DNA of 64,000 bases from Candidatus Omnitrophota bacterium (lineage in GTDB: Bacteria > Omnitrophota > Omnitrophia > Omnitrophales > Aquincolibacteriaceae): assembly GCA_016196545.1 (NCBI GenBank), contig JACPXM010000040.1, positions 5,263 through 69,262 on the forward strand. The letters run 5' to 3'. Position 1 is the stretch's first letter, and every line of letters begins with the position of its first letter. This document shows, in pieces, positions 10,340 through 57,216 of the stretch. The notes below the pieces were generated by a model that saw only the letters and a list, made by a program, of their open reading frames with translations, ran no database searches and was not told the origin of the DNA. A program made the position numbers and the translations under genes.

Positions 10340-11731
10340 TCAAGAAAGAATCATGGGATGCAAGGCATCCACGGAAATGAGGCCCGAGCTAACCTTATTC
10401 ATTCCGTCTTGGGATAAGCTAATCATACCGTGTTTCAAGGCATGGCTTCTCAGAAAGGATGCGGGCCTTCTCTCAAATATCAACTCCCTTAGCCCCTCAT
10501 CGACGGCCATCATTTCACAAATCGCAACTCGGCCGAAATATCCCGATCCTTGGCATTTTTCACACGGCTCGCAGCGCTTGCGCACAAGCCGCTGCGCCAG
10601 CACCGCCTCCACGGAGGAGGCCACCAGATAAGGCTCAATACCCATTTCCACAAGCCGCGTGACGGCCGAAGGAGCGTCATTGGTATGAAGTGTGGAGAAG
10701 ACAAGATGACCCGTAAGGGCCGAACGTATGGCAATCTCCGCGGTCTCTTTATCCCGGATTTCCCCGACCATTAAGATGTCCGGATCATGACGCAACATGG
10801 AGCGAAGTGCGCGTGAAAAAGTAAAATCAATTTTGGGATTCACCTGCATTTGAATGATCCCTGGGACTTTGTATTCCACAGGATCTTCAATCGTGATGAT
10901 TTTCCTGTCCATTTGATTCACTTCCCGAAGACAGGCATAAAGCGTGGTGGTTTTCCCGGATCCTGTAGGCCCTGTGACAAGCATCATGCCATGAGGCTTT
11001 TGACAGAATTTTCTTATCTTTTCAAGCATCGGGGGACTCATTCCAAGCTCTTCAAGCGATAAAAAATCCAGCGGCTTTAAAATACGAATCACCACGGCCT
11101 CCCCGTAAGTGGAAGGAAGAATGGAAACCCGCAAATCAAATTCCCCGCTCTTCGTTTTGACTTTGATTCGGCCGTCCTGGGGAAGGCGCTTCTCGCCGAT
11201 ATCAAGCTTGGCCATAATCTTGACCCTTGAGACAAAATGAGCGGCCACCTTTTCAATTCCTTGAGGGAGATTCGCCTTCATTAAATAACCATCCACACGG
11301 TAGCGAATACGGAAGCTTTTTTCAAAGGGTTCAATGTGAATGTCTGAAGCCCGGTGTTTTAAGGAGTCCATAAGAAGCTCGTTCACAAGCGCGGGCAAGG
11401 AAGCGACTTTAATTTCTCCGTCCAAAGTTTCAGCCTCCGCGGTCTCGGAAGCAATGACGGTTTCCTGCTCCATTAATTCGTCCATGACCGCGGCCCCCAC
11501 ACCGTAAATTCTCTGGATTTCCTTTTCAATGAATTCACGGGAATGCTCCTGAAACTCGAGAGGCTTTTGAATCATAATGAGCAGCTCTTCCTTATATTGG
11601 GAAGGAAAATCCGGAGGGATGGCGAGCTTTACAAGCCGGTCCTCGTAAGCAAGGGGCAGCACTTTATAATGAAAGGCGATTTTGGAAGGGACCAGATCCG
11701 TCACTGAAGGCTTCTTTAAAGCTTCCATCAA
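10340..11731 (-). CDS. type II secretion / type IV pilus assembly ATPase (GspE/PilB family)
   Basis: Walker A GPTGSGKTTTLYA, Asp box, Walker B (ILMVGEIRD), His box (TGHLVFSTLHTN) and a Cys-rich C-terminal motif. Confidence 0.9.
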   Translation of the reverse strand: MMEALKKPSVTDLVPSKIAFHYKVLPLAYEDRLVKLAIPPDFPSQYKEELLIMIQKPLEFQEHSREFIEKEIQRIYGVGAAVMDELMEQETVIASETAEAETLDGEIKVASLPALVNELLMDSLKHRASDIHIEPFEKSFRIRYRVDGYLMKANLPQGIEKVAAHFVSRVKIMAKLDIGEKRLPQDGRIKVKTKSGEFDLRVSILPSTYGEAVVIRILKPLDFLSLEELGMSPPMLEKIRKFCQKPHGMMLVTGPTGSGKTTTLYACLREVNQMDRKIITIEDPVEYKVPGIIQMQVNPKIDFTFSRALRSMLRHDPDILMVGEIRDKETAEIAIRSALTGHLVFSTLHTNDAPSAVTRLVEMGIEPYLVASSVEAVLAQRLVRKRCEPCEKCQGSGYFGRVAICEMMAVDEGLRELIFERRPASFLRSHALKHGMISLSQDGMNKVSSGLISVDALHPMILS

Positions 11732-12249
11732 AGTCCTCCCTGAATAGGCTTCGCCAGTATGATTTCATAGTGAAAGAGTTTCTCGCCCTCCGGTTTTTTC
11801 AGGGATAAACCTTCCAGCCTTGCGGCGGGATCTTTTTCCATTAAATGATAGAGAAACCGGACTAGCTTTTGAATATCCCCTTGAAACTCAAGGTATAGCC
11901 ACGCCTCTTTCTTGCCCTTTTTCTCCTGAATCCCTTGAGGCTCGAGCTTTGAAAAAACCAGGGATTCGGAGGAAGAATAATTCAATAAATCTTGAGTCCA
12001 AAGATTCATAATATTTTCTGTTTGAGAGGGCTCAATCAAAGAGGCTTTATGCTTATCCCATTCCATTTGAAGGCTTTCATTTTGCAATAAAAGAGATTTA
12101 TAACTTGAGAGGATTTGAGATTTTTGTGCTCTCTTCTCGTTTAATCCAAGAAACCAGGGGCTGAAAAGGGCCCACGCAAGACACACTAAAAGCGCTGTTA
12201 TCAATAGCGCCCCTAAGATACTCGTAATCTGTTTTCTCATAGCTGCCAC
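11728..12249 (-). CDS. GspM/PilO-like inner-membrane assembly protein
   Basis: 173 aa with a single N-terminal TM, a coiled region and a small C-terminal domain. It sits between the L-like and E genes and has 4-nt overlaps with its neighbours. Confidence 0.5.
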   Translation of the reverse strand: MAAMRKQITSILGALLITALLVCLAWALFSPWFLGLNEKRAQKSQILSSYKSLLLQNESLQMEWDKHKASLIEPSQTENIMNLWTQDLLNYSSSESLVFSKLEPQGIQEKKGKKEAWLYLEFQGDIQKLVRFLYHLMEKDPAARLEGLSLKKPEGEKLFHYEIILAKPIQGGL

Positions 12250-13535
12250 TTCCCTGTGATTTCAAAGTCAAAATAATCTTCGTTCAAGCGTTTCCTTAAA
12301 CCCGTGCGTTCCAACTTGATCTCATGAAGCCCTTCTATTTCTTCCATTGTTTTCACGGTTTCGGACAAAATTTGATGCGAAGGGCATTCTCCTTTGAAGA
12401 GAAAATCAGCACCTTTAATTTCAAGCTTCCTTAATACCACTTTGGGAGAGATTTTTTCCGCCATGCTCTTCAGAAACTCCAGAACGTTGGCTTTGGAATT
12501 CTGAGAAGTTTCAATGAGTTGAACACGGGAGCGAATTTCTTTAAGCTTTTCTATTTCAGGTTTCAACCGCAGGATTTCTGATTCCATTTGAGACAGCCGA
12601 ACATTTTCAGAATAAGCCTTGAGGGAAAAGGCAAGAATAAAAGCAAAAAAGACAGCCAAACCCGTGAGGATTAATTCCCGGAAAGTTCTCTTCACTGTCC
12701 TTTGCTTTTTTAAAAGCTTCTCGGCATGGGGCAATAGGCTTAAAGGGGCATGACGATCCATGAATTTTGCCCCATAAAGCACGGCGGGAATTGATTCATC
12801 GCTTACAGGTAACTTTTCTATGGGAATTGAGAAATGGCGTGTCACTCCTTCAAGTGAGGCCTTGTCCCATTGGCCTAAAACAAATATCTTTTGAGGTTTG
12901 GCGGCTCTTTCGAGTAAAAGAAGCGAGATTTCTTCGGCCATATCCTCTGTGGGACCGGCAAAGACTCTTGAAAAATAAAGCCTTCGTTTGGAAATGAAGA
13001 TAGCGACGACTTTTCCCTCTTCACCATAGAGAAGCAGCGTCGGGCCATTCTCCCCTTTTTCAAGGAAGTGCCAATAAAGGGATTGATCTTCGGTAATAAT
13101 CTCTGTGGGAAGAATAGAAAATTCGGCAAGCTGATCGAGTATTTCCCTTAAATTCCTCTCGGGCAAGCCCATCAAAATACCATTGGCAGCATCCTTTTCT
13201 TCTTCAAGGGATATCCCAAACGCCATTTGTTTGGCGGAATAAGGCAAAAGCTCGCTGATTTTTTCCTGAAGTCTGCCGCGTAAATTCTCACTTGGGCCTG
13301 TCAATACAAGCTCTTTTTGCAATACCTCAGAACGGCTTAACGCGAGAATTGTTTCTTCTAGCTTTGAACTACCGACAAAAGATTGGACCTTCGCTTTTAC
13401 TATGGCCTCCGGCATTTCGCGAAGAAAGATTTTCTCGAAAATCATCCCGCCCTTTGCTTCAACTTTAAGCAAAGCTAAAGAATCGGGTCGATAGCTCACA
13501 ATCAATCTTTCTTTTTTATTCCATCTATTCTTCAT
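12237..13535 (-). CDS. GspL-like protein (PilM-like cytoplasmic domain + TM + PilN-like periplasmic domain)
   Basis: 432 aa. A central TM segment (LILTGLAVFFAFILAFSL) is followed by a coiled coil. Called from position and architecture. Confidence 0.5.
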   Translation of the reverse strand: MKNRWNKKERLIVSYRPDSLALLKVEAKGGMIFEKIFLREMPEAIVKAKVQSFVGSSKLEETILALSRSEVLQKELVLTGPSENLRGRLQEKISELLPYSAKQMAFGISLEEEKDAANGILMGLPERNLREILDQLAEFSILPTEIITEDQSLYWHFLEKGENGPTLLLYGEEGKVVAIFISKRRLYFSRVFAGPTEDMAEEISLLLLERAAKPQKIFVLGQWDKASLEGVTRHFSIPIEKLPVSDESIPAVLYGAKFMDRHAPLSLLPHAEKLLKKQRTVKRTFRELILTGLAVFFAFILAFSLKAYSENVRLSQMESEILRLKPEIEKLKEIRSRVQLIETSQNSKANVLEFLKSMAEKISPKVVLRKLEIKGADFLFKGECPSHQILSETVKTMEEIEGLHEIKLERTGLRKRLNEDYFDFEITGKWQL

Positions 13536-14424
13536 GCCAGCTCAAGACCTCAAATTTAAAATTCTCAATTTCTTTGATAACAGCTTCCGCGGTTTTGTGA
13601 TTCGTTTTGATCTTTATCCGGTAATGCGCGGAATCCGTTGTCACCCCATTTAAAAATAGCTGGACGAGAGACAGGATTTGCGGGGTTTCGTCCAAATCAA
13701 GCCGTTTGGTAAAGTCCCGCGGAGTAAGTTCCTTACTTTGAATCGAGGACTGCCTTTGGCGGTCCTCAAGGATTTTCTTAAGCAAATCTGCTTTCGCGAA
13801 TTCATCGCCTGAAATGGACTTCAAATAAGCTTCCAGCACAAGCGGTGAAGCGGTATTGAGATTAATTTGGCCCGTCGTTGGAGCTACCGTTATATAAGGA
13901 AGGATTTTGGCTAACTCCATAACCGGTATTTCATTCCATAAATAAAGCTCATCCAGAGACCCAATCCCCTTTTCACGCGCTTCCATAAGGCGTTTGATCC
14001 AGGCCTTTTTGTCCGCGTTTACAAGAGGTTCGACCTGCGATTCAAAAATCTCAAAGAAGCTTTTGAGCAGTTTCTCTGAGGCAAAGTTTAAATTGATTTT
14101 GGACTCTTCGTCTTCAACTTCCAAAACCAGAGGGGGTCTGACCCCTTTAACTTTTAAGCCCGAGGGGTCAGACCCCTTTTGTTTTATGTACCATTTGTCC
14201 TGTAGAGAATCCTCATGAGGAAAAGGATCTGACAAAATCGCTTCCTTGACCTGACTCAGAGCCGTCTGAAACTGCATTTTGTCTTCAAGGCCTTGAAGCT
14301 CCCGCTTCATCATCAACGTGTGCTGGCTGGCCTCAAACCCCAGGCTTGCTGCAGTGATCGATAAAATCGAAATCAAAAAGACGGAGGCGACAAGTACGGA
14401 CCCTTTCTTATTTTTCATCCCCAT
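13525..14424 (-). CDS. GspK-like minor pseudopilin
   Basis: N-terminus MGMKNKKGSVLVASVFLISILSITAASLG and an EDEESKINLNFASEKLL motif, as in GspK. ATG 14424 is preceded by GGAAGGA. The longer track start (14559) overlaps the upstream gene. Confidence 0.6.
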   Translation of the reverse strand: MGMKNKKGSVLVASVFLISILSITAASLGFEASQHTLMMKRELQGLEDKMQFQTALSQVKEAILSDPFPHEDSLQDKWYIKQKGSDPSGLKVKGVRPPLVLEVEDEESKINLNFASEKLLKSFFEIFESQVEPLVNADKKAWIKRLMEAREKGIGSLDELYLWNEIPVMELAKILPYITVAPTTGQINLNTASPLVLEAYLKSISGDEFAKADLLKKILEDRQRQSSIQSKELTPRDFTKRLDLDETPQILSLVQLFLNGVTTDSAHYRIKIKTNHKTAEAVIKEIENFKFEVLSWHEE

Positions 14425-15103
14425 GCCCAATCCTTCCTTGAGGAATAGAAACCACTTTTTCAAATTCTCCAATCTTAATCTGAACCGCCCTTGGCAGGCC
14501 CTGATACGGATCATCCAACCAATCGTTTTCAAATTCCCGCATACCGTCGTCATTTTCATAAGGAAAGAAGAATTCCGCGGCCGGACCTTCCTTAAATAGG
14601 ATTTGTTCCTTTGCTTTTTCCTGCTTTAATCCTTGGGTGATTTTTCGCTCTTTTCGATAAAGTTTGTTTCCTTCCATCTTATATTCCACCGTAAAAAGCG
14701 TGTCTCCTTTTCGAATGGGAAATTCAATTCCGGAGTGCTTTCCCTTAAAAGGATGTTCCCGGAGTCTGACCATATTCCTTAAATCCTGATCCATCCGCAT
14801 AAAGGTAAGCCGTATGGGATCATATTCCCTGAAACTTTCCCGAATCCTTGCCTCAGCCTTGACGGCCTGATAAAACGATGTCGTCACTCCCGCGCCTGCA
14901 ATTCCAAAAAGCGTCAACGCAATCAAGCTGTCAATTAATAGAAAACCATGTGCTCGCTGTATGACGGGTCCTGTCGCTGCGACATCCCATTTGTGCTCGG
15001 TAGATACCTGCGCGCAAATGGGAGCCCTGTCTCCGCGCCACCCGTCATACAGCTCTCTAAGAAGAAAGAACGGTTTCAAAATTCCATTCATCTCTGCCTG
15101 CAC
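14408..15103 (-). CDS. GspJ-like minor pseudopilin with atypically long N-terminal extension
   Basis: Prepilin motif ...RAHG|FLLIDSLIALTLFGIAGAG, with Asp rather than Glu at +5. The only in-frame ATG codons (15103, 15091) lie inside the upstream gene. The 5' region contains a 98-bp hairpin element. Confidence 0.55.
   Translation of the reverse strand: MQAEMNGILKPFFLLRELYDGWRGDRAPICAQVSTEHKWDVAATGPVIQRAHGFLLIDSLIALTLFGIAGAGVTTSFYQAVKAEARIRESFREYDPIRLTFMRMDQDLRNMVRLREHPFKGKHSGIEFPIRKGDTLFTVEYKMEGNKLYRKERKITQGLKQEKAKEQILFKEGPAAEFFFPYENDDGMREFENDWLDDPYQGLPRAVQIKIGEFEKVVSIPQGRIGHGDEK
14956..15053. repeat. 98-bp GC-rich nested palindromic element in the 5' part of the GspJ-like ORF
   Basis: Perfect 14-bp terminal inverted repeat: GCTGTATGACGGGT (14956-14969) and ACCCGTCATACAGC (15040-15053). 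There is also an inner 9-bp inverted repeat, TCCCATTTG / CAAATGGGA. I counted about 61% GC, above my by-eye estimate for the flanking sequence. Confidence 0.7.
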
Positions 15104-15578
15104 CTTTCAGCTGAATTTGGGTATCATAGAATTCGATGGGAATTGAGACTTCCTGCTGATGAAGTTTGGTTATGATTTCAAATAAATAACCATCCTTATT
15201 TTCTTTTCCACCAAAAAGTAATAGATCCATGCGTTCGCTGATTTCCAGCTGATACAGTAACTTTTCCGTAGCCAATAATCCTTTAGTAATAAATTCTCCT
15301 TTTCCAGTTACTTTGAGACTTCCCGATAAAACTCCCATTAAGGAAACACAAGCTATGGAAATTATGACTAAGGCAATCAAAGCTTCGATCAACTGAAAAC
15401 CGTTCTCATTTGTTATTAAGATGCGAGAGGCTTGTGGCAGGGCACGCTCGCGAGGCGTAGCGGGCACGGATTCCGCCGTTTTGTGGCGGAAGAGCGAAGC
15501 CGAGCGTTGCGAGTGAGTCCCGCCTCGCAGGGGCGGGACGAGCGGTGCCGTCGACACAAGCCTCTCGCATCTTTTCAT
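15057..15578 (-). CDS. GspI-like minor pseudopilin carrying a 52-codon in-frame insertion in its leader peptide
   Basis: The ATG at 15578 overlaps the gspF-like stop as ATGA. The mature part is G|FQLIEALIALVIISIA, with canonical Glu at +5. Codons 3-54 are encoded by the palindromic element at 15418..15573. Confidence 0.65.
   Translation of the reverse strand: MKRCERLVSTAPLVPPLRGGTHSQRSASLFRHKTAESVPATPRERALPQASRILITNENGFQLIEALIALVIISIACVSLMGVLSGSLKVTGKGEFITKGLLATEKLLYQLEISERMDLLLFGGKENKDGYLFEIITKLHQQEVSIPIEFYDTQIQLKGAGRDEWNFETVLSS
15418..15573. repeat. 156-bp GC-rich palindromic (MITE/RPE-like) element inserted in frame
   Basis: Perfect 19-bp terminal inverted repeat: AAGATGCGAGAGGCTTGTG (15418-15436) and CACAAGCCTCTCGCATCTT (15555-15573). 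Internal hairpins are TTCCGCC-N7-GGCGGAA and GTCCCGCC-N7-GGCGGGAC. The length is 3 x 52. Confidence 0.75.
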
Positions 15579-16654
15579 TGCACTAATCCGTTCATTTCGA
15601 TAATGGGTAAAATGACACTTAAAACTACAAATCCCGTGACAAGCCCCACGATTAAAATCAAGGACGGCTCAAGCAGCTTCATTAGAATTTGTATGCGCGA
15701 TTCCATCTCCCGCGCAGCATCTTCACTAATATCCTTCAGTGCTTCGGGCAAATGACCTGCCTCTTCACCCGCACTGATTAAAGCAAGCTGGGATTCACGG
15801 ATCCAGCTCACATCCTGACATGAAACAGAAAAAGATTTCCCTTCGGAGAGTAACGCCTTAATTCTTGCTAGGGACTGCGGCTCTCCTCCCACCGCCTCAA
15901 GTGCTGAGACAATAGATACTCCGCTTTCAAGTAAAAGCGATAAAAGAGAACTAAATTGATAAAGTTTCTTTTGACGTATCAGTTCCCCAAAGAGAGGCGT
16001 GCTTTTAAAGAGAATCTCTACACCAATCCCGAATCTCCTCAGGAAATAAAAAATAAGCCCCGAGAGGAGAATAAATAAAATGAGGGCAGGAAAGAAATAC
16101 TGAGAAGCCATTAAAGTAAAAGAGGTAAGCGCTGGAAGTTTCCCTCCAAAGCTGTCATAAACAGGCAAAATCTTCGGAATCACCCACTGAAAGAGCACGG
16201 CCATGGCAAGTACGCCAAAACCCAGCACAAACAGAGGATAAGCCAGGGCTTCTTTGATTTTCCGGTTTCTTTCCTCAGTGGCTTCAAAATGCTTCGCCAG
16301 AAGCATAAGAATTCTCTCAAGCGTTCCCGAGATTTCCCCGGCCTGAACCATATCGATAAAATACCTCGGGAAATTACCTTCTCCCGTCTCAAGTCCCGCC
16401 GAAAGACTTTTTCCTTCTTCAAGAGATTGATGGAGATTTACAAGAACCAATTGAAATGACTTTGCGGTGATTTCCTTTTTGATAATCTCAAGCGCCCTTA
16501 AAATTGGTACTCCACCCCGGATCAACCTTGAAAGGCTTGCAGAGAATATCCTAAGATCTTTAATTTTGATTTTGAGTTTGTGATTAGAGGCGACCGATTT
16601 TGACTTGGTCTCTTTCTCCTCACTTAAAACGAGCTCTAATTCATTTAGAATCAT
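15575..16654 (-). CDS. type II secretion / type IV pilus platform protein (GspF/PilC family)
   Basis: Two GspF-type repeats with three TM segments. The start at ATG 16654 (MILNELE) overlaps the secretin stop by 14 nt. The track start at 16777 is probably too long. Confidence 0.85.
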   Translation of the reverse strand: MILNELELVLSEEKETKSKSVASNHKLKIKIKDLRIFSASLSRLIRGGVPILRALEIIKKEITAKSFQLVLVNLHQSLEEGKSLSAGLETGEGNFPRYFIDMVQAGEISGTLERILMLLAKHFEATEERNRKIKEALAYPLFVLGFGVLAMAVLFQWVIPKILPVYDSFGGKLPALTSFTLMASQYFFPALILFILLSGLIFYFLRRFGIGVEILFKSTPLFGELIRQKKLYQFSSLLSLLLESGVSIVSALEAVGGEPQSLARIKALLSEGKSFSVSCQDVSWIRESQLALISAGEEAGHLPEALKDISEDAAREMESRIQILMKLLEPSLILIVGLVTGFVVLSVILPIIEMNGLVQ

Positions 16655-18308
16655 GCTTTGTCTTTTCCCAATACGGCAGTTCTCCCACTTTTGCATGTCG
16701 CAGTGGATCGACATAAGTATTTCGATAGGAATACTCTCCAAATTTTTCAAAGGGCAATATTTGATCTTTGGAATCAACGAAACGGGAAACCTCTTTGGAT
16801 TGCTCCGTGGGACGAATAATCGTCGGCGTCAAAAACGTGACGAGTTCGGTTTTTGTAAAATCATTCGAACGGCTGTGAAAAAGACGACCGAATACGGGAA
16901 TGGATCCTATTATCGGGACTTTGGAGGACTGTTTATCTTGTGAATCTTGAATCAATCCCCCAATGACAATTGTCACTCCTGATTTCACCTGCACTGTAGT
17001 TTCAAGTTCTTGAGTTGTAACAATGGGAATGCTTGTTCTTGTGAAGGCAGTGTTGGAGCCTTGAGCCACTCCTTCAAGTTCAAGGGTTTGACTGGAACTA
17101 GAAACTTCCGGTTTAATTTTCATTTCCACGAAATCATCGTTTGAAATCCGGGGCAGGACTTTTAAGGTAACTCCCACATCCACAAATTGCACATTGTCTG
17201 CGGTATTAGTCGAATTGGTGGTTTGCACAACAGTTTGTGAGACAAACGGCTGTTTGGTGGCTACGGCGAGTTTTGCTTCTTCATTATTCATCACGGTTAC
17301 GCGGGGACTTGAAAGCGTATTGGTTTTGCCGATTCGTTCCAGTAAATCCAACACCACTCGAAAATCTTCTCCACTTTGACCCAAGGCAAAAGTCGTAAGT
17401 GCTGCGGCACTCGCAGGCGGTGAAACTGCAAGCGGCGCAGCCGCCCGAATATTTTCAAAACGCCCGACTTCCTGAATAATATATTCCCAATCGATTCCCT
17501 GCCTGAAACTGTCGGTTAATGTGACCTCTACAATTTTCGCTTCAATCAAAACCTGCGGAACTTGCACATCCAACGCATCCACCAGTTTTCCGACTTCCTC
17601 AATTCGGCTGGGAATATCCATAACAACAATTCGATTCGCACGCTTATCGACTTGAACTTTACCAGCACCTCCTTCAAGCATGCCTTTGAGCTTTTCTTCA
17701 AGATCTTCTACCTTGGCATAACGAAGACTAAATACTTTGGTTTCTTGCGGCTTGTCCCATTCTGTGATCATCAGTTTCATTTCCGCTAAAATCTCAGGGT
17801 TGTCGGTAATCACAAGAGAATTGGTGCGGGGTTCCGTCAAAATTCTTCCCATGGCACTTTTGACATCCGCCAGCTTCCCGGCAAGCATTTCCGCCTTGGC
17901 AAAGCGAAGGCTGAAGGACTCAGTTTTTCTTATGTCTCGATAGGGCCTCCCAGTTTTTAGCAAATATTCCTCTTCGGTCATCACCTTGATGACATTCCCT
18001 TCTGTCACGCTTGCAAGACCTTGGGATTCCAGAATAGTCCTTAGCGCTTCTTCAATTGGGACATCCTGCAGGAATATAGAAACTTGCCCTTGCACATTTT
18101 TTCCCGCAACAATATTGAGGCCAGATTTTTTCGAAAGAATCTTAAAAACATCAAAAATACTGACGCCTTGGAGTTCAAGAGTGAGATTGCCGGAAATAGG
18201 GATTACATTCTCCGGGACAGGAGAAGCCTCTGCCTCCCCCGCAAAAGAATTGGGAATTAAAACAAAACATGTAAAAATCAGACAAGAAACAAAAATTATT
18301 TTTTTCAT
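16641..18308 (-). CDS. secretin (GspD/PilQ family) outer-membrane channel
   Basis: 555 aa with a signal peptide, N-domains and a C-terminal secretin core (VIGGLIQDSQDKQSSKVPIIGSIPVFGRLF). Confidence 0.9.
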   Translation of the reverse strand: MKKIIFVSCLIFTCFVLIPNSFAGEAEASPVPENVIPISGNLTLELQGVSIFDVFKILSKKSGLNIVAGKNVQGQVSIFLQDVPIEEALRTILESQGLASVTEGNVIKVMTEEEYLLKTGRPYRDIRKTESFSLRFAKAEMLAGKLADVKSAMGRILTEPRTNSLVITDNPEILAEMKLMITEWDKPQETKVFSLRYAKVEDLEEKLKGMLEGGAGKVQVDKRANRIVVMDIPSRIEEVGKLVDALDVQVPQVLIEAKIVEVTLTDSFRQGIDWEYIIQEVGRFENIRAAAPLAVSPPASAAALTTFALGQSGEDFRVVLDLLERIGKTNTLSSPRVTVMNNEEAKLAVATKQPFVSQTVVQTTNSTNTADNVQFVDVGVTLKVLPRISNDDFVEMKIKPEVSSSSQTLELEGVAQGSNTAFTRTSIPIVTTQELETTVQVKSGVTIVIGGLIQDSQDKQSSKVPIIGSIPVFGRLFHSRSNDFTKTELVTFLTPTIIRPTEQSKEVSRFVDSKDQILPFEKFGEYSYRNTYVDPLRHAKVGELPYWEKTKHDSK

Positions 18309-34324: not shown

Positions 34325-34852
34325 ATGAAAAAAAAGCAGGCACTTATCTTCCTTGTATGGACCCTGAATTTTCTGGGCCTCAACTTTCCGGCGGCCTCCG
34401 CCAATCTCGAGATTTATTCTCCGATCGATTATCTTTTTGAATTCACGAATTCCCCCGACGACCTCTCCAATTTCATGAAGCGGAATTTTAAATTTACGGA
34501 GGATGAAACCTTATTTGGGGAAATCGATTACTGGCAGTCGCCCGAGGAATTTTACAGCCGTAAAAAGGGGGACTGCGAAGATTATGCCCTCTTTGCGCAA
34601 TACGTTTTGGCGAGGCTGAATATGGAATCCTACGTGGTGAGTATTTACGCAGCCAACGGTTATGCCCACACCCTTTTGATTTACCGGGAGGGCGGCCGCT
34701 ATCAAGTCCTCAACGAAGACCGCCTGATTCGCTACAATGCTTCTTCCCTTGAAGATGCTATCGGCCAAGTGAATTCCGATTGGTCTTGGGCCGCCATCGC
34801 GCGCCGCCAAGACACCCGCGGCTTCGCCCTTCAAACTTTTTTCAATCTTTAA
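34325..34852 (+). CDS. secreted transglutaminase-fold cysteine protease (BTLCP / LapG-like)
   Basis: Signal peptide MKKKQALIFLVWTLNFLGLNFPAASA. Candidate Cys-His-Asp/Asn triad: GDCEDYALFAQYVL ... GYAHTLLIY ... YQVLNED. Confidence 0.6.
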   Translation: MKKKQALIFLVWTLNFLGLNFPAASANLEIYSPIDYLFEFTNSPDDLSNFMKRNFKFTEDETLFGEIDYWQSPEEFYSRKKGDCEDYALFAQYVLARLNMESYVVSIYAANGYAHTLLIYREGGRYQVLNEDRLIRYNASSLEDAIGQVNSDWSWAAIARRQDTRGFALQTFFNL

Positions 34853-34864
34853 TTCAATTCCTGT

Positions 34865-34917
34865 ACCTTTTTACCGGTTCCAGGTTGCCAGCGGCAACCT
34901 GGAACCGGTAAAAAGGT
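34865..34917. terminator. perfect 25-bp stem / 3-nt loop hairpin between convergent genes (bidirectional terminator candidate)
   Basis: ACCTTTTTACCGGTTCCAGGTTGCC-agc-GGCAACCTGGAACCGGTAAAAAGGT. It starts 13 nt after the + gene stop and ends 3 nt before the stop codon of the giant minus-strand gene. Confidence 0.7.
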
Positions 34918-34920
34918 CGA

Positions 34921-37900
34921 CTACGCCGCGCTTTCGAGGAGCTGGGCCATTGCAGCTTGGAGGAGAATTTCGCGGGCCTTGTCGTGGATAATCCATGAGC
35001 GGCTTTCGGCATTGTAGCCAATGACGCCGTCCAGTGCAGCAAGGGAAAGGATTTGCTTGATGAGCTCTGCGGTGATATCAAGCGCTTCGGCTGTTTTGAA
35101 ATGAAGGAGGGTGGAAACCGCGAAGGCCTGCTCCCAAAGCAGCCCCTCTTCTAATTGGACAGAGCGTCCTTTCAGCACATTGCGTTGAAGCTCCGAAGGA
35201 AGGCCATAAGCGAGCGCATTCGGATTTTGAGCAAGAAAAGTATTTAATTCCCGAATCGCCTGCTTTGCATTTTCGAGTGAAATGGCTTTTGCATGTCCTG
35301 CTGGCAATTTTTCAAAGAAGGCTGGATTTTCAGCAAGCTGTTCCGAGGTGGCGAAAATCCGGATATCGGCCGTGATTTTATAACTCTTGGAAAGATCCTG
35401 AATTTTTTTCAAAAATTCCAGCACCCATTCCTGAATCACGGGATTCGGAGAAAATGGAATCGCAAAGGCAAAGTGAAGGCGCTCCGCATTTGTTTTGAGA
35501 AAATGATTGCGGACAAACTTTTCTAAGCCCGCGATACTTTGCTGGCTAAAGGCGCGGAGTTTTTCATCCTCGTCATCGGAACCGATGAAGAAATGGGCCG
35601 AGGACCCAAAAGTTTGGCCCGCCGCAAAGACTTCTAAATATTTCCGCCTCCCCGCTTCAACCCGAATATCGGTTAGGATTTGATCCCATTGCGGCAAGGG
35701 TAAGGCATTGAAAGCAACTACCGCTTCTCCCGCAACGACAGGAGGCAAAGGCATATTGTGTGCAAGGTATAGAAGCAAACCGGGAGCGCGCAGCTCGGAG
35801 CGAGACGCAGATTTTTTATCCCCAGTAAGAGAAGGTACAACTGCGGCGGATTGAAGCTCGGAAACAAATTGATTGGCCATCGTTTGAAGCACAAATTCCT
35901 TGCTAGGAGCTTTAAAGATCAAAACAAGATGATCGCCGGGATTAACGCGCGCAAATCGAAAATCGGAAGCATTCTGCAACAGATCCGGATGCAAAACAAA
36001 TTGCCGACCTTGGGTTTTATTCTCCAAAAGGATCAGAACTTGATCCCCGAAATCGTTGTAAAAATCTTGCAGCTTCTTCAAAATCTGAGGTGAAGGAGAC
36101 TGAAAGGTTGCGCTTGGAATATCCAGCTTAAGTTCTGCCCACATCTGGGTTCGGTCAAAAGCGGTGAATAAATCCGCTTCTTGGGCAAAGGCATCGTGAT
36201 AAAAAGAAAGGGTGAAATCATCTAATTTTTCGGGAGTAAAGGCAAGAGCAAGAATTCGCTCAATGACCGAAATCGATTTAGAGAGGGTCTCTCCTGTTAC
36301 TGAATCTCCTTCAGCCATGAGAAGGGTTGGACTATTGCCTCCAAAGCGGGATAGAAAATGGGTCAAATCACTCTGGGTTTGTAACCGATTGGGATCGTAG
36401 ACAGTCGGCATCTTATCTCTCGCCCTTGCAGGGTTCGCGAGATAAAAATCAACACCCAGAAAATTAAAACGGTAAATTACTTCGGAGAGAATTCCTTGGA
36501 TCTTTGTCAAATTGGCTGGAGGCCCAATTTTGACTTTTTGAATCCTACGAGCCGGAATTGTTTTTCTTGTCGGTGTTTTCTCCACAGGAATCGTATAGAC
36601 CCAAACCGGCTTGTGATTCAGCTCCGCCTCGACACTTTGCTCCACAAATCCCAATTCCTGTAAAGTTCCCCGGGAAAGGACTATTTGCCGGATTTGAATA
36701 TGCTCAAATCCCAACTTTTTTGCGAAGGGCAGCAGATTTTTTTTGAACCAACCATAAAAAACTTTGTCTTCTCTAAAAATATTGGCGGGAACTTCCGAAG
36801 AAAAGTCCTCATAAGGCTGAATTTTTCCATAACCAATCTCTAACCTATCTCTATCGGCGGTTAAATCAATGTGAGCAAAGGATTCGCCTGTAAAAGCTGT
36901 ATTGCTCCGTGAATTTGGATCCGAAATTCCTTTAAAGGTACGTGAGAGAGTTAGAGAAAGGCGGCCGTCACCTTTATTCACCACAAGATAATACCCTTTC
37001 TCATCCCATTTTTTTTGCGCTTTAGGTTCTAAACCTTCGTGCGGCGTCCAAACCACTAGATCTTTTTGGGCATAACCCTTTTTCTCCAACTCCCGGAGCA
37101 AGCCTTGAGGAATTAATGAAAGCACAGCACCCATCAATGCCGGAGTCGCATTATCCCACCAGAAAATAGATCGCCTATTGACTTCTACGGTATTTTCAGA
37201 TTCAGATTTGGGCTCAGGAATAAAATTCAAAATTTGAATACCCATGGAAGGTATAATCAAAACAAGTCCTGACTTGAGAAGATAATCTTGGGTGTAGCTG
37301 CCGTAAACAGCCCCTGTAATCGCATCCTTGATGAGCACCTGATCTTCTTTTTTTAAGTTTAATCCCGATAAAAGTTTTTTTATGACTTTAGAATTTTGGA
37401 TCCACCGAGTGGCCTGCGAATCATCCTGTCTTATCCCTGATTCTATGGCTAGAAGACCGGGATGGCCTGTAAAATTCTCGGAACCAAAGACTCGAATAAA
37501 AGGTGTTTTGTCCTCGCGATTTTCTTTGGGGCCATCAAAATCATAAAAAGTTTCTTCTTCATTTTCTGCTTCGAGTGAATAAATCAAATCTTTCCGAAGC
37601 CATTCTGAATTAAAAAATGCCCCGACTCGCTTACCTTCGGCGAATTGCCGCACGGTTTGAATAGGATGCTCTTTTCTTTCAATGGCATTATTGAATTGGC
37701 GAAGATATTCTGCCGCTGGCAAACGTGCATTGAGGATGCCGCTCAACCGAACCGAGGTTACCTGATAAGCGGCAAATTGGAATCGGTCACGATTAAATTC
37801 ACGCAAAACTTTAAGAAGAACGCGTAACCAGGCTACCTCGCTCTCGTCCTCAGGAATTGTAGTGTTTCCTGAACCCGGAATATTCCAATCCAAGATTTCA

Positions 37901-40900
37901 CCCTGTTGTTGATAAATTCCTTCAATATACGGAGGTGCAATTTCGATTCCGCCATTGACCGCAACGTCCGTTTCGGTAAAACCCGCGGCTTCGGTACCAC
38001 GATTGTTATACCTTTCGCGAAGCGAATCATTAATTTGGGCATCCGTTGCAGGTAAAAGATAACGCTGCTCAGGAATTCCCCAGCCTGTCGCAACAACAAG
38101 AAGGCCGGAACCATACTGATTCACTTCTGTTTGGAGGATTCTTAACCTTCTATAAGTCTCCGCAGATTCAGGACCGGATTGAACATTTCCAAAAATAACG
38201 ACTTGAGCTCCGGCGTGAACTAAGCCGCGAATATTATTATCGGATAACGAACGATCTCGCCCGACTTTTTCCTCGACGAGACGCCCCGAATAAGAAAAAA
38301 CAATTTTATGAGGATCAAGCTTCTTAATGGCAGGATCTAAGGCGGCTACTTGCACATTATCTCGCAAGAATTCTTTAGCCCGTTTTTTTGCTTCGAGATT
38401 CTGTTCGGGTGTGGGATTTTGAGAATCTGCTCCGGGAAATTGTTTTTGAAATTCCTGACTGTCAAAAATGGAACGGTAGATTGTACTTGAAGCGCTGAGA
38501 TCATCGCCATTCGTAATCGCCAAAGGTCGAATAGGATCATAAATCGATACCTCATGAACATGAACGGCCGCTACGCCATTTGAACCATCGGCTGCCCGAA
38601 CACCGGCACTTGTGGAATCATAAGTGTTTGAGTCTCTGTGTTTGAAATAAGTCCACCATTCTTTTGGAATATTCATAAAATGAGGGAATTCCCAACCTTT
38701 GAAACCGCGGTTGCGGTAGGTGTGCGTGGTCATCCATACTAAAGCATTTTCAAGGGCGTATCTTTCTTTTGCCTGCCTGGCATTGTGTTCATGAATCCGT
38801 TTCATGAGAGGAAGCGGCCCGAGTTGTCCATCATTTCCCCAAATAACAGGAGACTTATAGCCTTCAGGGTTTTTATTAAATGAATCTTCTTCGAGGCTCT
38901 CGATCAACTTAAGAGAGGCGGCTGAAAAAAATTCGGTAAATTCTTCCCACGTGGCAGAGCCAAAATCCGGACCGTATTTATAAAGGAGCTTGGTAAAATA
39001 CTCATCTTCACCATCTCTGGAGGGTTTATCTTTGATCAAATAGACATCAACCCCATTCTTTGAACCTTTGAAAACTTGAGCAATGACAATTTTTCTCTGT
39101 CCCCCTTTGTTGGTTTCCATTTCAAACTCATAAAGGGGAGTCCTGCTTAAATTTTCGATGGGGGTTGGTAATTTTCGGTAATCGACATCCCGAATTAATT
39201 TGTTATCTTTATCAAAACGAAAAGGATACCAGGGCTCAATGGTGGCGAGACGAGCCTCAGAGGCCATTAATAATTTGGCAGCCGTAGTATGATATTGTCC
39301 AACTCGACCCAATCCTCCGGCGGCATTCTGTGTTTCGGGTGAAACGTAATAAATCATGCGATTACGAAGATTGTTCGCGAAACGGCGAAGCCAATTTTGG
39401 GGAACCTCGGATTTGGACATCAAAAGAATTGAATCGATTAAGGGAAGATCGATAAGGTCACCGTCTCTTTTCTCGAGAAATTCTAATAGTGCTTTTATTT
39501 TTTCTTGCTTTAAGAGCCTGACCGCCTTTAAAACAGGCCACCTTGCCTCCCCTTCATAGAGGGGCCAACGTTGAGTGGCTTTCGCATATTGCTTGAGAAG
39601 TATCTCGAGCTGAAGTTTGGCATGTTCAACTTTGTTTTCAACCGCTTCCAAGGCAGCTTCTAAATCTCGCAGTATGTAGCGAATATGATTCGTTTTAATC
39701 GCAAAAACTTCCGGCTGTACGGCAAGCTCATATCCTTTTTCGCTCTGGCTCAGCAAGCCTTCTTTGACAAGCCGGCTCAGCAAGTAATCCATCCGATGGG
39801 TTTGTCCATTTAGGTTTTGGCCTTCAAGTTTTTTAACAACAGGGGCGAGAATCTCTTCTTTTTTTATCGGGCCAGGACGCAAAATATCTAAAAAGGCATG
39901 GCCGACTACATTGGTACGATGCCAATCGGGTTCGCGCTCTCCGACACCCATGAGCAACGTTTCTTGTTCTTTAATAATCGCATCGGCAGTATTGCGCACT
40001 TCGGAGCGGGCAATGGGTTCACTTTTCGAATCAGGTTTGCTTCCCGAATAGGGGTCGCTTCCATTTATACTTTTGCCAATGAGTTCGGGTTTAATGATCG
40101 CTTTAACCTGGTCCATGATTTCGGCGGACGTTTGACTTTTCGGATTGATGGGCGGAAGCACCTTCATGTGGAATTCAAAAGGTTGCATCCGACCGCGGCT
40201 GGATATCCATCTCAAAAGCATTCTCCGAAATCGCGGCCATTTTCTATTACCCCCGTAAATAATATTACCCCAGAGAACAACAGGGACCACTTGTATCAAA
40301 TTTTCCTCACGAAAAACTCCTTCGTTGACTTGAACCGCAACGCGCGCCAAGGTATCCCGCCACGGCTCTACTTCTCCGGTTTGTTTGTTTCGAGGTCCGT
40401 CCAAGGCGTTTTCAGCACGAAGTTTGATTTCTTGGGAGGGAAATCCGCCCACACTCCAAACTTCCAAGACGTGGCTCCTGAGGCCTTCGACAATTCTAGC
40501 CAGTCTCGCCTTTTTTTCTTCCTCGGTCATGCCTTCCTTTTTGCCTTCGATTTTAATGGCCAACCCCAAGTAAAGAAGAAAATTTTGAAAAACGCCGAGA
40601 TCTTTGGGATTGGCCATCATCAAAACCAGACGTCCGGTACGGAGATAAATTTCAAAAGAGAGGATGAGCCCGTCGAGCAAACTGAAATGAGTGCTCATGA
40701 GAATGAAATTCTTCTTGGGGAGATTTTCTAAGCCTTCGACGTGGATCGCGATCAAGGGACGGATGAAGAGCTTGTAAAACCCAATTAAAAAAGGCTTGAG
40801 AAGCCGTAGCTTCCAGGACACGGGAGGATGTAGAGGCTGCGCTGAAACGGGTTCTTCTTTCTCTTCGCCCTCCAATGCAAAATCCGATGCAATCGACTGC

Positions 40901-54516: not shown

Positions 54517-54945
54517 ATGAGTCAAAAAGGTCAATCCCTGACCGAGTTCGCAATGTCCCTGCCGCTTCTGTTACTTCTCTTCTTAGCTTCGAGCGATATC
54601 GCCAATATCATTCATATTTATAATCGCATGGTGGACTGCACCTGGGAAGGCGCGCGCCTTGCCTCGGAAGTTTCACAATCCTACGGTTCCAACAACTTAA
54701 AGAAAGTTGCCGTTGCAAGAACGCAAAGTGCCCTTACCAATTCCGGAATCCCGTGGTGGGAAATAAAAACCACGGCTGAAGTTAAGAAGGTGCAGGACGG
54801 CGATAAAAGTTATGACCTTCTGGAACTTGCCTCCAGCTATCAACCTTCGGGATTCTTATCCAACATTTTGAATAAAATTGGCTTTAATTTTTCCTTTCCA
54901 TTAACTTTAAATGCCAAGGCGGTGGGGTATGTTAACTACCAGTAA
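54517..54945 (+). CDS. TadE-like pilus assembly protein
   Basis: The N-terminus KGQSLTEFAMSLPLLLLLFL is the TadE/TadF-type motif. Confidence 0.65.
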   Translation: MSQKGQSLTEFAMSLPLLLLLFLASSDIANIIHIYNRMVDCTWEGARLASEVSQSYGSNNLKKVAVARTQSALTNSGIPWWEIKTTAEVKKVQDGDKSYDLLELASSYQPSGFLSNILNKIGFNFSFPLTLNAKAVGYVNYQ

Positions 54946-55789
54946 AAAAGGACAGGCCTTAGCGGAGAGCGCCCTTGCGCTTCCCCTTTTCTTTTTGCTG
55001 CTTTTTTTCATCATTGAATCAGGTCGCGCCTATTATGTCGTGATGGCCGCTCAAAATGCCTCCCGCATTGGCGTGCGCGAGGCCGCGATGAGCGCACAGG
55101 ATAAAATCAAAGCCGTGGGAAAACAAAAAACCTTGGACGCATTGAAGCCTTATAACTTTAATGGCGTCAATGTTCAGGTTACGGTCCCGCCTTCAAGCAA
55201 TATTTATATTGACCCCATACGAGTTGCCACGACGGTGCCGTTTAATTCCATTTTGACTAAAATGTTTCCCCGTCTCAGTAATTTAACAGCATCGGCGGCT
55301 TCATTTCTCGCCAATGCAGGCCCGCCGGCGGCGCCAAAATTACAGCCCAAACCCGCTCCGGTTATTCCTGGAACCGCAGGAATGGGAAGCGCAAATCAAG
55401 GCGGCGCAGGATCTTCAGGCGGCTCTAAATCTGGAAAATCAAAAAAATCGGGTTCGAAATCAGGCAGCGGTTCAGGTGCAGGGACCTCCATGGGAGGAGA
55501 CTCCGGAACATCGGGATCCTCCGCATCCGGCTCCACCTCTTCTTCCTCAGGCACTAAAGGTAAGGGAGGCAAAGGGAAAAAGGCTGGCAAAGGAAGTGGA
55601 AGTGGTTCAGGTGCCGGCAGCGGTGGAGCTTCAGGTTCAGGCTCAGGATCAGGTTCGGGTTCAGGAACGGGCGGTACAGGAAGCAGCGGTTCCGGAACGG
55701 GTTCTGGCAATTCAGGCACATCCGGATCAGGGACGGGCACGGGAGGCTCGGGAAAACCTTCCTCGCCCGGAGCCTTGATTGAGCCCTAG
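54929..55789 (+). CDS. TadE/TadF-like protein with long Gly/Ser/Lys low-complexity C-terminal tail
   Basis: The N-terminus is MLTTSKKGQALAESALALPLFFLLLFFIIESGRAY. The C-terminal ~130 aa is almost entirely G/S/T/K (GSGSGSGSGTGGTGSSGSG...). Confidence 0.6.
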   Translation: MLTTSKKGQALAESALALPLFFLLLFFIIESGRAYYVVMAAQNASRIGVREAAMSAQDKIKAVGKQKTLDALKPYNFNGVNVQVTVPPSSNIYIDPIRVATTVPFNSILTKMFPRLSNLTASAASFLANAGPPAAPKLQPKPAPVIPGTAGMGSANQGGAGSSGGSKSGKSKKSGSKSGSGSGAGTSMGGDSGTSGSSASGSTSSSSGTKGKGGKGKKAGKGSGSGSGAGSGGASGSGSGSGSGSGTGGTGSSGSGTGSGNSGTSGSGTGTGGSGKPSSPGALIEP

Positions 55790-55797
55790 GAGTCCTT

Positions 55798-57216
55798 ATG
55801 AAATTTTTAAGGGGACTTTTGATGTTTCAACTTTTTACCCAACAAAAACAATCCGAAAAAGGGGTCATTCTAGTCATTCTCGCCGCGGCCATGATTCCCT
55901 TACTTGGCATCGCGGCCCTTTCCATTGATTTGGGATTCGCTTATCTTGTCACCAAACAAATGAAAAACGCAGCAAGCCTGGCCGCACTCGCCGCGGTTAA
56001 GACCTTCGCGACAAAACCGGCCAGCTATCAGGACCTCTATGATTCCGCCCGCGTTGTCGCCGAGCAAAATATTATTCATATCAATGGGCCCAAGCAAGTA
56101 CAGCTTGCAGCCGGGGATTTGGAAGTCGGAACTTATGATTTCACGGCGAAAAAATTTACTAAAAATAGGATGAATGATCCTGCGATTCCGGGCACCAACG
56201 CAGTGCGGGCCAACGTGAGGCTCGCCGAGGATACCAACAAGCCCTTCACTTGGAAATTTGCGCAGGTACTTGGATTTGACGCGCCGGAGGGTTGGCAGCG
56301 TCACGGAGTGGCCGTGCTCGGCAAAAGGCATTTTGTGGCCCTCGTGGATATTTCAGCTTCCATGGATGATAAAAGCTATCCCTCTTATTTTCCGAATCCC
56401 ACGGCCGAGTGTCCTTCCGCGGTGGAGGATCCTTACAATGACTGGATGAGCCGGAATTTCCGCTCCTTGCCGATTGCCTCTTACAACGGCACCTATTGTT
56501 TAGGAGGAAAACCTCAGCCGATGTTTGATCTGTTTACTCACGTCCGCGATTCGTTTCTGGAAAACACTCAGCTCTTTAATGACGCCAATTATCGCGTGGG
56601 GCTTATCACTTACGGCACCTTGATCGACACACAAATTGAATTAAACAAAGATGATAATCGGAAAGAAGCCCAAACTTTTATCACGAAGAATGTCTTAGAT
56701 CAGCTGGATGCTTACCGCATCGCGGAAAATCCGGGGATTTTCAAACTCGGAGGCGGTCAAATCTTCCCCGGAGGAGATGATCCCCTGAATGAATTGGGGA
56801 AAGGTTCAACGGGCTTCACCAACACCCCTCAGGCTTTGGAGTCTGCCATCAGCATGCTAACCACGGCAAGCCAGAGCACCAACGTAAAAACCAGCAACAC
56901 GATTATTTTACTCACCGACGGCGAGGCCAATTGCAGTAAATCCAAAAAACCCACTTGCGGGAACACCACGCCGCATATCGCCGCTTCCAAGAAAGACATG
57001 TTTGCTCAAGCAACGACCGCGGGAAAAAACGACATCATTATTCACGCGCTTTATTATGCCACCAACGATTCCTGCCCCAGCGCCCAGGGATTCAAAGACC
57101 TTCAGCAGGTAGCCCAGAAATCCGGCGGCCAGGCCTATTGTGCGACAAGCATCGCCGAGGTTTCCGATATTTTCACCAATCTCACGCTTCAGCCTGTCTT
57201 CGTCCTTGTGGAATAA
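55798..57216 (+). CDS. TadG-like protein with von Willebrand factor A domain
   Basis: The N-terminus EKGVILVILAAAMIPLLGIAALSIDLGFAY is a TadE/G-like motif. The vWA MIDAS-like motif is VALVDISASMDD ... LLTDGEAN. Confidence 0.7.
   Translation: MKFLRGLLMFQLFTQQKQSEKGVILVILAAAMIPLLGIAALSIDLGFAYLVTKQMKNAASLAALAAVKTFATKPASYQDLYDSARVVAEQNIIHINGPKQVQLAAGDLEVGTYDFTAKKFTKNRMNDPAIPGTNAVRANVRLAEDTNKPFTWKFAQVLGFDAPEGWQRHGVAVLGKRHFVALVDISASMDDKSYPSYFPNPTAECPSAVEDPYNDWMSRNFRSLPIASYNGTYCLGGKPQPMFDLFTHVRDSFLENTQLFNDANYRVGLITYGTLIDTQIELNKDDNRKEAQTFITKNVLDQLDAYRIAENPGIFKLGGGQIFPGGDDPLNELGKGSTGFTNTPQALESAISMLTTASQSTNVKTSNTIILLTDGEANCSKSKKPTCGNTTPHIAASKKDMFAQATTAGKNDIIIHALYYATNDSCPSAQGFKDLQQVAQKSGGQAYCATSIAEVSDIFTNLTLQPVFVLVE

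Follow-up and report, generated by a model that had tools for sequence, protein, structure and literature searches.

Introduction

Palindromic elements that lie in frame within genes are established in bacteria, and include the Rickettsia palindromic elements (RPEs; Ogata et al., 2000) as well as ERIC and BOX (reviewed in PMC10969869). Known in-frame inserts of this kind come mostly from Rickettsia and lie in loops of mature proteins. REPs and REPINs, which are mobilized by RAYT, are GC-rich imperfect palindromes that are extragenic by definition and highly repeated; their insertion leaves no duplication, and REPs within operons modulate mRNA stability. In this study, we analyzed a stretch of 64,000 nucleotides (nt) from a Candidatus Omnitrophota bacterium (GenBank assembly GCA_016196545.1, contig JACPXM010000040.1, positions 5,263 to 69,262), hereafter called the window, which carries a GC-rich palindromic insert of 156 bp, designated E1, at the very start of a minor pseudopilin gene (pp1) in a type II secretion-like operon. 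Here, in contrast to the Rickettsia inserts, the element lies in a signal sequence that is predicted to be removed. Such class III leaders are cytoplasmic by the positive-inside rule and are removed after Gly-1 by the prepilin peptidase, and known leaders have 6-26 amino acids (aa), with those of type IVb reaching about 30 aa (PMC4471445). An earlier note on this DNA, written from the letters alone, had proposed that the segment is an in-frame insertion similar to RPEs.

The Palindromic Insert and Its Host Gene

The insert, its host gene and the upstream partner gene comprise the following features. A slash in a sequence marks a cleavage site or an insertion junction.

15575..16654, minus strand: gene for a GspF-family platform protein, 359 aa (MBI3317264.1), the upstream coupling partner of pp1
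15057..15578, minus strand: pp1, minor pseudopilin gene, GspI/PilV-like, 173 aa from the ATG
15576..15578, minus strand: ATG of pp1, overlapping the GspF stop TGA (15575-15577) as ATGA
15418..15573, minus strand: E1, GC-rich palindromic insert of 156 bp, equal to codons 3-54 of the pseudopilin open reading frame (ORF) when translated; not in the related contig L001
15555..15573: start-codon-side arm of the E1 terminal inverted repeat
15517..15539, minus strand: inner hairpin 1 of E1, GTCCCGCC, a 7-nt loop, then GGCGGGAC
15471..15491, minus strand: inner hairpin 2 of E1, TTCCGCC, a 7-nt loop, then GGCGGAA
15465..15467, minus strand: in-frame GTG within E1, codon 38, the GenBank start (MBI3317263.1, 136 aa, 23-aa leader)
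15418..15436: cleavage-site-side arm of the E1 terminal inverted repeat (AAGATGCGAGAGGCTTGTG on the plus strand)
15396..15401, minus strand: GGT TTT, Gly(-1)/Phe(+1), the predicted prepilin-peptidase site, followed by QLIE with Glu at +5

The terminal inverted repeat of E1 is 19 nt long and 100% complementary, with 118 nt separating the arms, and its stem runs on inward imperfectly, GGCAC.GCTC pairing with GAGC.GTGCC. The 19-mer occurs at only two sites in the window, which are the two arms (0.01 expected). The inner hairpins are alike in design, (T)CCCGCC-N7-GGCGGG(A) and TCCGCC-N7-GGCGGA. The GC content of E1 is 66.7%, compared with 35.8% in the remainder of the pp1 gene and with 35% and 45% in the 300-nt flanks, and the highest GC value of any 80 nt in the window (0.71) falls within E1. 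Its RNA folds at -86.1 kcal/mol (z = -6.9), and none of 200 shuffled sequences folded equally well. These results agree with the earlier note, which had described a 156-bp element with a perfect 19-bp inverted repeat and two GC hairpins, richer in GC than its surroundings, and had suggested the RNA folding. A scan for intrinsic terminators and promoters gave nothing convincing for E1.

The 156 nt make up 52 codons with no stop in the pseudopilin frame, as had also been noticed. This says little by itself, since about 30% of 52-codon frames are stop-free at the GC content of E1, and four of its six frames are stop-free. The open frame is thus unremarkable and is best seen as a filter that surviving inserts must pass. 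The left junction is exact (ATGAA/), with E1 beginning 5 nt after the start of the pseudopilin ATG, and the sequence on the 3' side reads ATA ACA AAT GAG AAC GGT/TTT CAG TTG ATC GAA. Conceptual deletion of E1 gives ATG AAA ATA ACA AAT GAG AAC GGT TTT, coding for MKITNENG/FQLIEAL, so that the short leader predicted in the earlier note was recovered; with E1 the leader has 60 aa.

The pp1 protein carries the prepilin motif G/FQLIEALIALVIISIA, in which Gly(-1), the hydrophobic helix and Glu at +5 are invariant in a 25-member alignment. PF07963 (N_methyl) matches residues 57-79 with E = 0.0024, which is below the cut-off, and the GspI/XpsI/PilV models begin at residues 58-60; no Pfam or NCBIfam model extends over residues 1-54. 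The upstream gene matches PF00482 with E = 4e-42. The ATG at 15576-15578 is probably the ancestral, translationally coupled start, as the ATGA overlap with the GspF stop pointed out earlier is also found in the related loci L001 and L007, and a GTGA overlap in L011. No canonical in-frame start (ATG, GTG, TTG) lies between E1 and the cleavage site, so whichever start is used, at least part of E1 is translated. The leader from the ATG is rich in R, P, A, S, and L and has a net charge of +6; that from the GenBank GTG within E1 is MPATPRERALPQASRILITNENG/F.

The operon encodes, in order, an HTH_17 regulator, a 163-aa protein, a secretin, GspF, pp1 (GspI/PilV-like), pp2 (GspJ-like), a GspK-like protein, a PilM/N-like protein, a 173-aa protein, and a GspE ATPase. 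The operon proteins of the window are identical to GenBank MBI3317262-MBI3317266 (HYZ85_04590 to HYZ85_04610), encoded on a 72-kb contig of a metagenome-assembled 'Candidatus Omnitrophica bacterium'. In addition, the operon (10340-18999) has no GspG, the major pseudopilin, between GspF and the minor pseudopilins. This arrangement is common to L001, L005, L007, and L011, and GspG is there in L006, L008, L009, and L010.

Empty Site and Leader Lengths in Related Loci

Only one close homolog of pp1 was found in 5.8 billion proteins, P0002 on the Logan contig L001, with 60% identity. This contig is syntenic with the window (HTH_17, 155-aa protein, secretin, GspF, pseudopilin), and the secretins of the two align closely across most of their length. 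Its junction has the same GTGCAATGAA with the ATGA overlap, followed directly by TCAAAAGGGC TTT CAG, which gives a 5-aa leader, MNQKG/F. The 52 codons of E1 are the sole large indel over the 4.3 kb common to the window and L001. L001 is the kind of empty site in an orthologous pseudopilin gene that the earlier note had proposed to look for.

A full HMMER search of 1.84 billion representative proteins yielded 46 members of the pp1 family, about 31 of which have leaders of 4-10 aa. Family members that appear truncated at the N-terminus are miscalled genes, with actual leaders of 3 aa in L011 (at its GTGA overlap with GspF) and 16 aa in L010. A long leader in L008 was likewise rejected as a gene-calling artifact, where an internal ATG gives MSSKG/F. 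The E1-encoded residues 1-42 had no match among the same representatives, all alignments beginning at query residue 43 or later. A search of metagenomes for loci related by GspF returned only relatives with 27-30% identity, which were uninformative for the junction.

The parsimonious reading of these sequences is that E1 is an in-frame insertion into the ancestrally short leader of a GspF-coupled minor pseudopilin, and the best explanation of the empty site is that the insertion postdates the split from the L001 lineage. With this empty site, and with short leaders usual in the family, the part of the earlier note that saw an in-frame insertion in the leader holds; membership in an RPE-like repeat family is not supported, as described below.

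The N-terminal extension might instead be a functional propeptide or domain, such as a cytoplasmic docking or regulatory segment, with the DNA palindrome secondary. The frame is open across E1 and also across E2, a second palindrome in the leader of pp2 (see below), long leaders exist in several family members, and GenBank gives both pp1 and pp2 extended N-termini. However, the extensions have no mutual sequence similarity, residues 1-42 drew no HMMER match, and residues 1-54 lie outside every Pfam and NCBIfam model. Moreover, a composition of R, P, A, S, and L is what 67%-GC DNA encodes in any frame, and the L001 orthologue lacks the extension. We consider a functional propeptide very unlikely.

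Neighboring Palindromes in the Operon

Two further palindromes, which the earlier note had missed, lie immediately downstream of E1 in the operon.

14408..15091, minus strand: pp2, GspJ-like pseudopilin gene as annotated, 227 aa, with a 49-aa leader that reads through E2 and overlaps the 3' end of pp1
14956..15053, minus strand: E2, palindrome of 98 bp, 61% GC, with perfectly paired arms of 14 bp, located past the pp1 stop and ahead of the G/F of pp2
14124..14185, minus strand: E3, 62-bp palindrome (GGGGTCTGACCCC core) in the GspK-like gene, z = -5.6

E2 folds at -56.3 kcal/mol (z = -7.0) and lies directly upstream of G/FLLID of pp2, and its length is not a multiple of three. The annotated start of pp2, the ATG at 15091, is within the 3' end of pp1, and precise excision of E2 leaves pp2 without a start codon, so the ancestral E2 junction is not reconstructible. 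The segment of the GspK-like protein in which E3 lies is dissimilar to that of three orthologues and has 7 additional aa. E1, E2, and E3 have no common sequence. When the window was folded in sliding stretches of 120 nt, E3 ranked second, E2 third and the core of E1 fifth, and the other two of the top five folds were a convergent-gene terminator and a 5' leader. Against the Rfam 15 covariance models, E1 and E2 had no match that reached the gathering score or E <= 10, the one exception being a Guanidine-III match of 14 bits, which is at the level of chance.

Hairpins in the Leaders of Relatives

Structured or unusual leaders were also found in related loci. In L007, the ATGA overlap with GspF is followed right behind ATGAA by an imperfect hairpin of about 96 nt (z = -3.7), and the leader has 36 aa. 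In L005, the 53-aa leader holds a 66-bp palindrome, CGTCATCCTGAGG...CTCAGAATGACG (z = -4.65). The 32-aa leader of L006 has 61% GC compared with 41% in the mature part, and is not significantly structured. Folding of the junction in the short-leader loci L001 and L011 revealed nothing unusual (z = -1.45 and 0.0, respectively). The hairpin is thus not conserved as a functional feature, and neither is any putative role as a gate or switch, which the earlier note had raised as a possibility.

GTCATYCTGAGCGAAGCGAAGRATC, the unit that forms the arms of the palindrome in L005, has 68 copies in 58 unrelated IMG/VR loci (L012-L069), often as inverted pairs with conserved arms and variable loops. The L005 copy lies at L005 173-240, and the translated repeat gives '...EILRFAQND...'. 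The unit represents a genuine dispersed repeat, for which neither an Rfam family nor, by sequence, a description in the literature was found. The sequence TAATAACA, which follows the inserts in both the window and L005, was considered as an element tail and rejected, because other copies of the L005 repeat lack it.

Palindromes also occur elsewhere in the relatives. The secretin genes of L001 (1131-1238) and L006 (1092-1208) contain palindromes of about 110 bp across the start and the signal-peptide coding region; in L006, the A-rich arm codes for the Lys-rich n-region and the T-rich arm for the hydrophobic h-region of the signal peptide. The leader of a GspJ-like gene at L006 5484-5545 (MDHKRINSTFSIQHSTCAKRG/Y) has a TTCAACATT-type short repeat, which also builds AT-rich palindromes at L006 2853-3103. 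In addition, a gene for a 23S_rRNA_IVP-family (four-helix-bundle) protein lies between GspF and GspG at L006 4240-4608.

E1, E2, and E3 might instead be selected cis-regulatory RNA at cistron boundaries that sets the stoichiometry of the GspI/J/K-like tip pseudopilins through strict coupling, attenuation of downstream translation, or RNase barriers or processing sites, similar to the REP hairpins in the malEFG operon of E. coli. Under this explanation, the genes overlap, so only the leader-coding region has room for structure. It is consistent with the very stable folds of all three palindromes (z = -6.9, -7.0, and -5.6, respectively), with the perfect arms of E1 (19 bp) and E2 (14 bp), and with the E1 stem starting 5 nt past the start codon. 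Additionally, three of the five most structured places of the 64 kb fall within a region of 1.5 kb that coincides with the genes of the three tip pseudopilins, and hairpins occupy the same position in L005 and L007. However, the inserts show no conservation of sequence or structure among them, and no Rfam family matched E1, E2, or the L005 repeat. The closest orthologue, L001, and L011 are unstructured there, so the operon works without a hairpin, and the L005 insert copies a promiscuous dispersed repeat, which is more consistent with parasitism than with a dedicated regulator. Taken together, selected regulatory RNA is an unlikely explanation of these palindromes.

Search for Further Copies

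The earlier note had named the RPEs as the closest parallel of E1. Membership of E1 in a repeated, mobile, RPE-like family is not supported, as searches of the window, GTDB species genomes, JGI metagenomes, IMG/VR, and plasmid and phage sequences yielded no further copy. An exact scan of the GTDB species genomes for the 19-nt end of E1 gave a single Anaerolineales contig, which was taken as a chance match, since the similarity does not extend past 20 nt. The same scan gave zero matches in the JGI metagenomes and zero in IMG/VR; both inner hairpins of E1 and the arm pair of E2 likewise had zero matches in IMG/VR. A blastn search of E1 against plasmids and phages returned nothing meaningful, and the motif CCGCC-N-GGCGG occurs in the window only within E1, apart from one probable chance match. 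Exact-protein look-ups of the window pseudopilin and GspF gave no independent contig. The only independent contig, L070 (SRR12113417, Logan), is 100% identical and spans window positions 18121-19625, which do not include E1.

A Model for the Persistence of E1

We favor, at somewhat better than even, the explanation that E1 is selfish or foreign palindromic DNA inserted in the pp1 leader, which would be tolerated because the leader is cytoplasmic and cleaved, and whose effect on translational coupling would be a side effect. Under this model, a GC-rich, strongly self-complementary DNA of selfish or foreign origin would have inserted after the fifth nucleotide of pp1 (ATGAA/). The class III leader with E1 should stay in the cytoplasm, given its charge of +6 and the positive-inside rule, and the prepilin peptidase should cut it after Gly-1. 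An insert that lacks stops and has a length that is a multiple of three would then alter only an N-terminal extension that is disposable, positively charged and probably disordered (60 aa from the ATG, 23 aa if the GTG is used), leaving the mature pseudopilin untouched, and E1 may persist for this reason. Palindromes unrelated to E1, those of the two genes that follow and those in leaders of other family members, would be accounted for by the same tolerance. In gene-dense overlapping operons, cleavable N-terminal signals may be among the few permissive landing sites.

Translation of pp1 might also be affected. A 19-bp stem starting from +6 of the AUG, as the base of a hairpin of -86 kcal/mol, should strongly hinder initiation by free 30S subunits, and the base of the stem would be melted by ribosomes that terminate at the overlapping UGA, which could then re-initiate. 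Since the hairpin would hinder free 30S binding, synthesis of pp1 is probably strictly dependent on GspF translation, and lowered.

Several points weigh against this explanation. The collections searched yielded no further copy of E1, E2, or E3, and E1 is known from a single metagenome assembly. There is no target-site duplication at E1, as the flanks ATGAA/ and /AATAAC share at most 'AA'; if this 'AA' were counted as a duplication, the ancestral gene would be out of frame. No transposase domain was detected among the window proteins scanned, and no Y1_Tnp match among the scanned ORFs. With neither a duplication nor a transposase, we infer the mobility of E1 from its architecture and from analogy only. 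The 60-aa leader from the ATG, for which cleavage is predicted, is longer than the reviewed range of 6-26 aa (PMC4471445), whereas the 23 aa from the annotated GTG fall within it. Furthermore, the perfect 19-bp arms could reflect selection for the stem instead of a recent insertion, and the presence of a palindrome in each of three successive genes of the tip complex could indicate function instead of tolerance.

Some of the same observations bear on a further explanation, that E1 is not mobile at all and represents a one-off capture of a foreign high-GC fragment during repair, or a metagenome assembly artifact, with the inverted ends incidental. E1 is single-copy in everything searched, is present in one assembly only, lacks a target-site duplication, and exceeds its host gene by 31 points of GC. 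However, the perfect 19-bp repeat lies exactly at the bounds of the GC-rich block, for which we estimate a chance of about 1e-4 in 64 kb, and the insert is in frame with an intact ORF, which a random chimera manages about 1 time in 10. In addition, two more bounded palindromes adjoin, and assemblies made independently from other samples contain analogous ones, which favors a biological process. A one-off event or an artifact is therefore improbable, in our judgment even more so than selected regulatory RNA.

A further reading can be proposed for the type II secretion-like operons of Omnitrophota. The codons between the coupled start (ATGA/GTGA) and the prepilin site might be a hotspot that is repeatedly colonized by unrelated hairpin elements, either through a target preference for ATGAA/ or through recruitment for coupling or for the dosage of tip pseudopilins. 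We regard this reading as doubtful; a targeted hotspot or a dosage-tuning recruitment of hairpins is possible but unsupported. If it were true, it would represent an undescribed interplay of small palindromic DNA with class III signal peptides and, in relatives, with the class I signal peptide of the secretin.

Other Structured Elements and Pilus Genes in the Window

Several other features of the window were observed outside the operon. The most structured spot is a perfect 25-bp hairpin with a 3-nt loop at 34865-34917, between the convergent genes 34325-34852 (plus strand) and 34921-43695 (minus strand), which is probably a bidirectional terminator. A c-di-GMP-I riboswitch (34222-34319; 57 bits, E = 1.6e-8) lies directly 5' of the transglutaminase-like ORF 34325-34852. 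Upstream of a gene for a 2215-aa protein (23919-30566, minus strand), a GC-rich, strongly folding intergenic leader without an Rfam family is located at 30616-30735, and it could be an undescribed cis-regulatory RNA. In addition, a separate Tad/Flp-type pilus set at 54517-57216, with two TadE-like proteins and one TadG/VWA protein, adjoins two-component sensor genes.

Implications

The location of an insert in a cleaved class III leader is new, and so is the recurrence of unrelated inserts there and in neighboring signal-bearing genes of Omnitrophota. It suggests a simple rule for the survival of selfish DNA in the gene-dense genomes of uncultured bacteria, namely that disposable leaders would serve as safe landing sites. 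Gene callers pick wrong or arbitrary starts at such sites, as seen from the GenBank start of pp1 within E1, and the class of a pilin can no longer be reliably read from the length of its leader. Very stable hairpins right behind coupled starts may also shift the stoichiometry of the secretion machinery. Additionally, the unnamed and widely dispersed GTCATYCTGAGCGAAGCGAAGRATC hairpin repeat merits description.

Comparison With Known Systems

Among the known systems, the RPEs are the most similar to E1. They are palindromic elements of about 150 bp that lie in frame in genes and are translated as an extra peptide while the host protein remains functional, and their transposition mechanism is unknown (PMC10969869). 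E1 shares with them the in-frame insertion with the ORF intact. However, RPEs occur as sequence families that have a conserved encoded peptide and number tens of copies in a genome, and they are found in Rickettsia, whereas E1 is single-copy where searched and comes from Omnitrophota. E1 is also GC-rich within an AT-richer gene, and lies in a cleaved leader, not in a surface loop of the mature protein.

[quoted passage not shown] E1 resembles MITEs in its terminal inverted repeats and in its size, which is under about 300 bp, but differs from them in having no target-site duplication, no related insertion sequence or transposase detected among the window proteins scanned, and no other copies in the collections searched. 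As for REPs and REPINs, the E2, L005, and L007 inserts resemble REPIN-type long hairpins. However, no RAYT gene was seen in the window, the interior of E1 is branched and is not a simple doublet, and E1 lies within the only available ORF, unlike the extragenic REPs.

The dispersed GTCATYCTGAGCGAAGCGAAGRATC repeat is similar to E1 in forming a hairpin in a pseudopilin leader that is translated in frame, but it has no sequence similarity to E1, has conserved arms and variable loops, and is demonstrably multi-copy. The type IVb prepilin leaders (15-30 aa) are hydrophilic, positively charged, end in Gly, and are removed by the peptidase (PMC4471445), features that the pp1 leader resembles. Those leaders are native and conserved, whereas the pp1 leader of 60 aa (or 23 aa) is nearly all inserted DNA and does not occur in the orthologue. 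Taken together, we assign E1 to no named family and treat it as an orphan palindromic insert functioning in the manner of an RPE.

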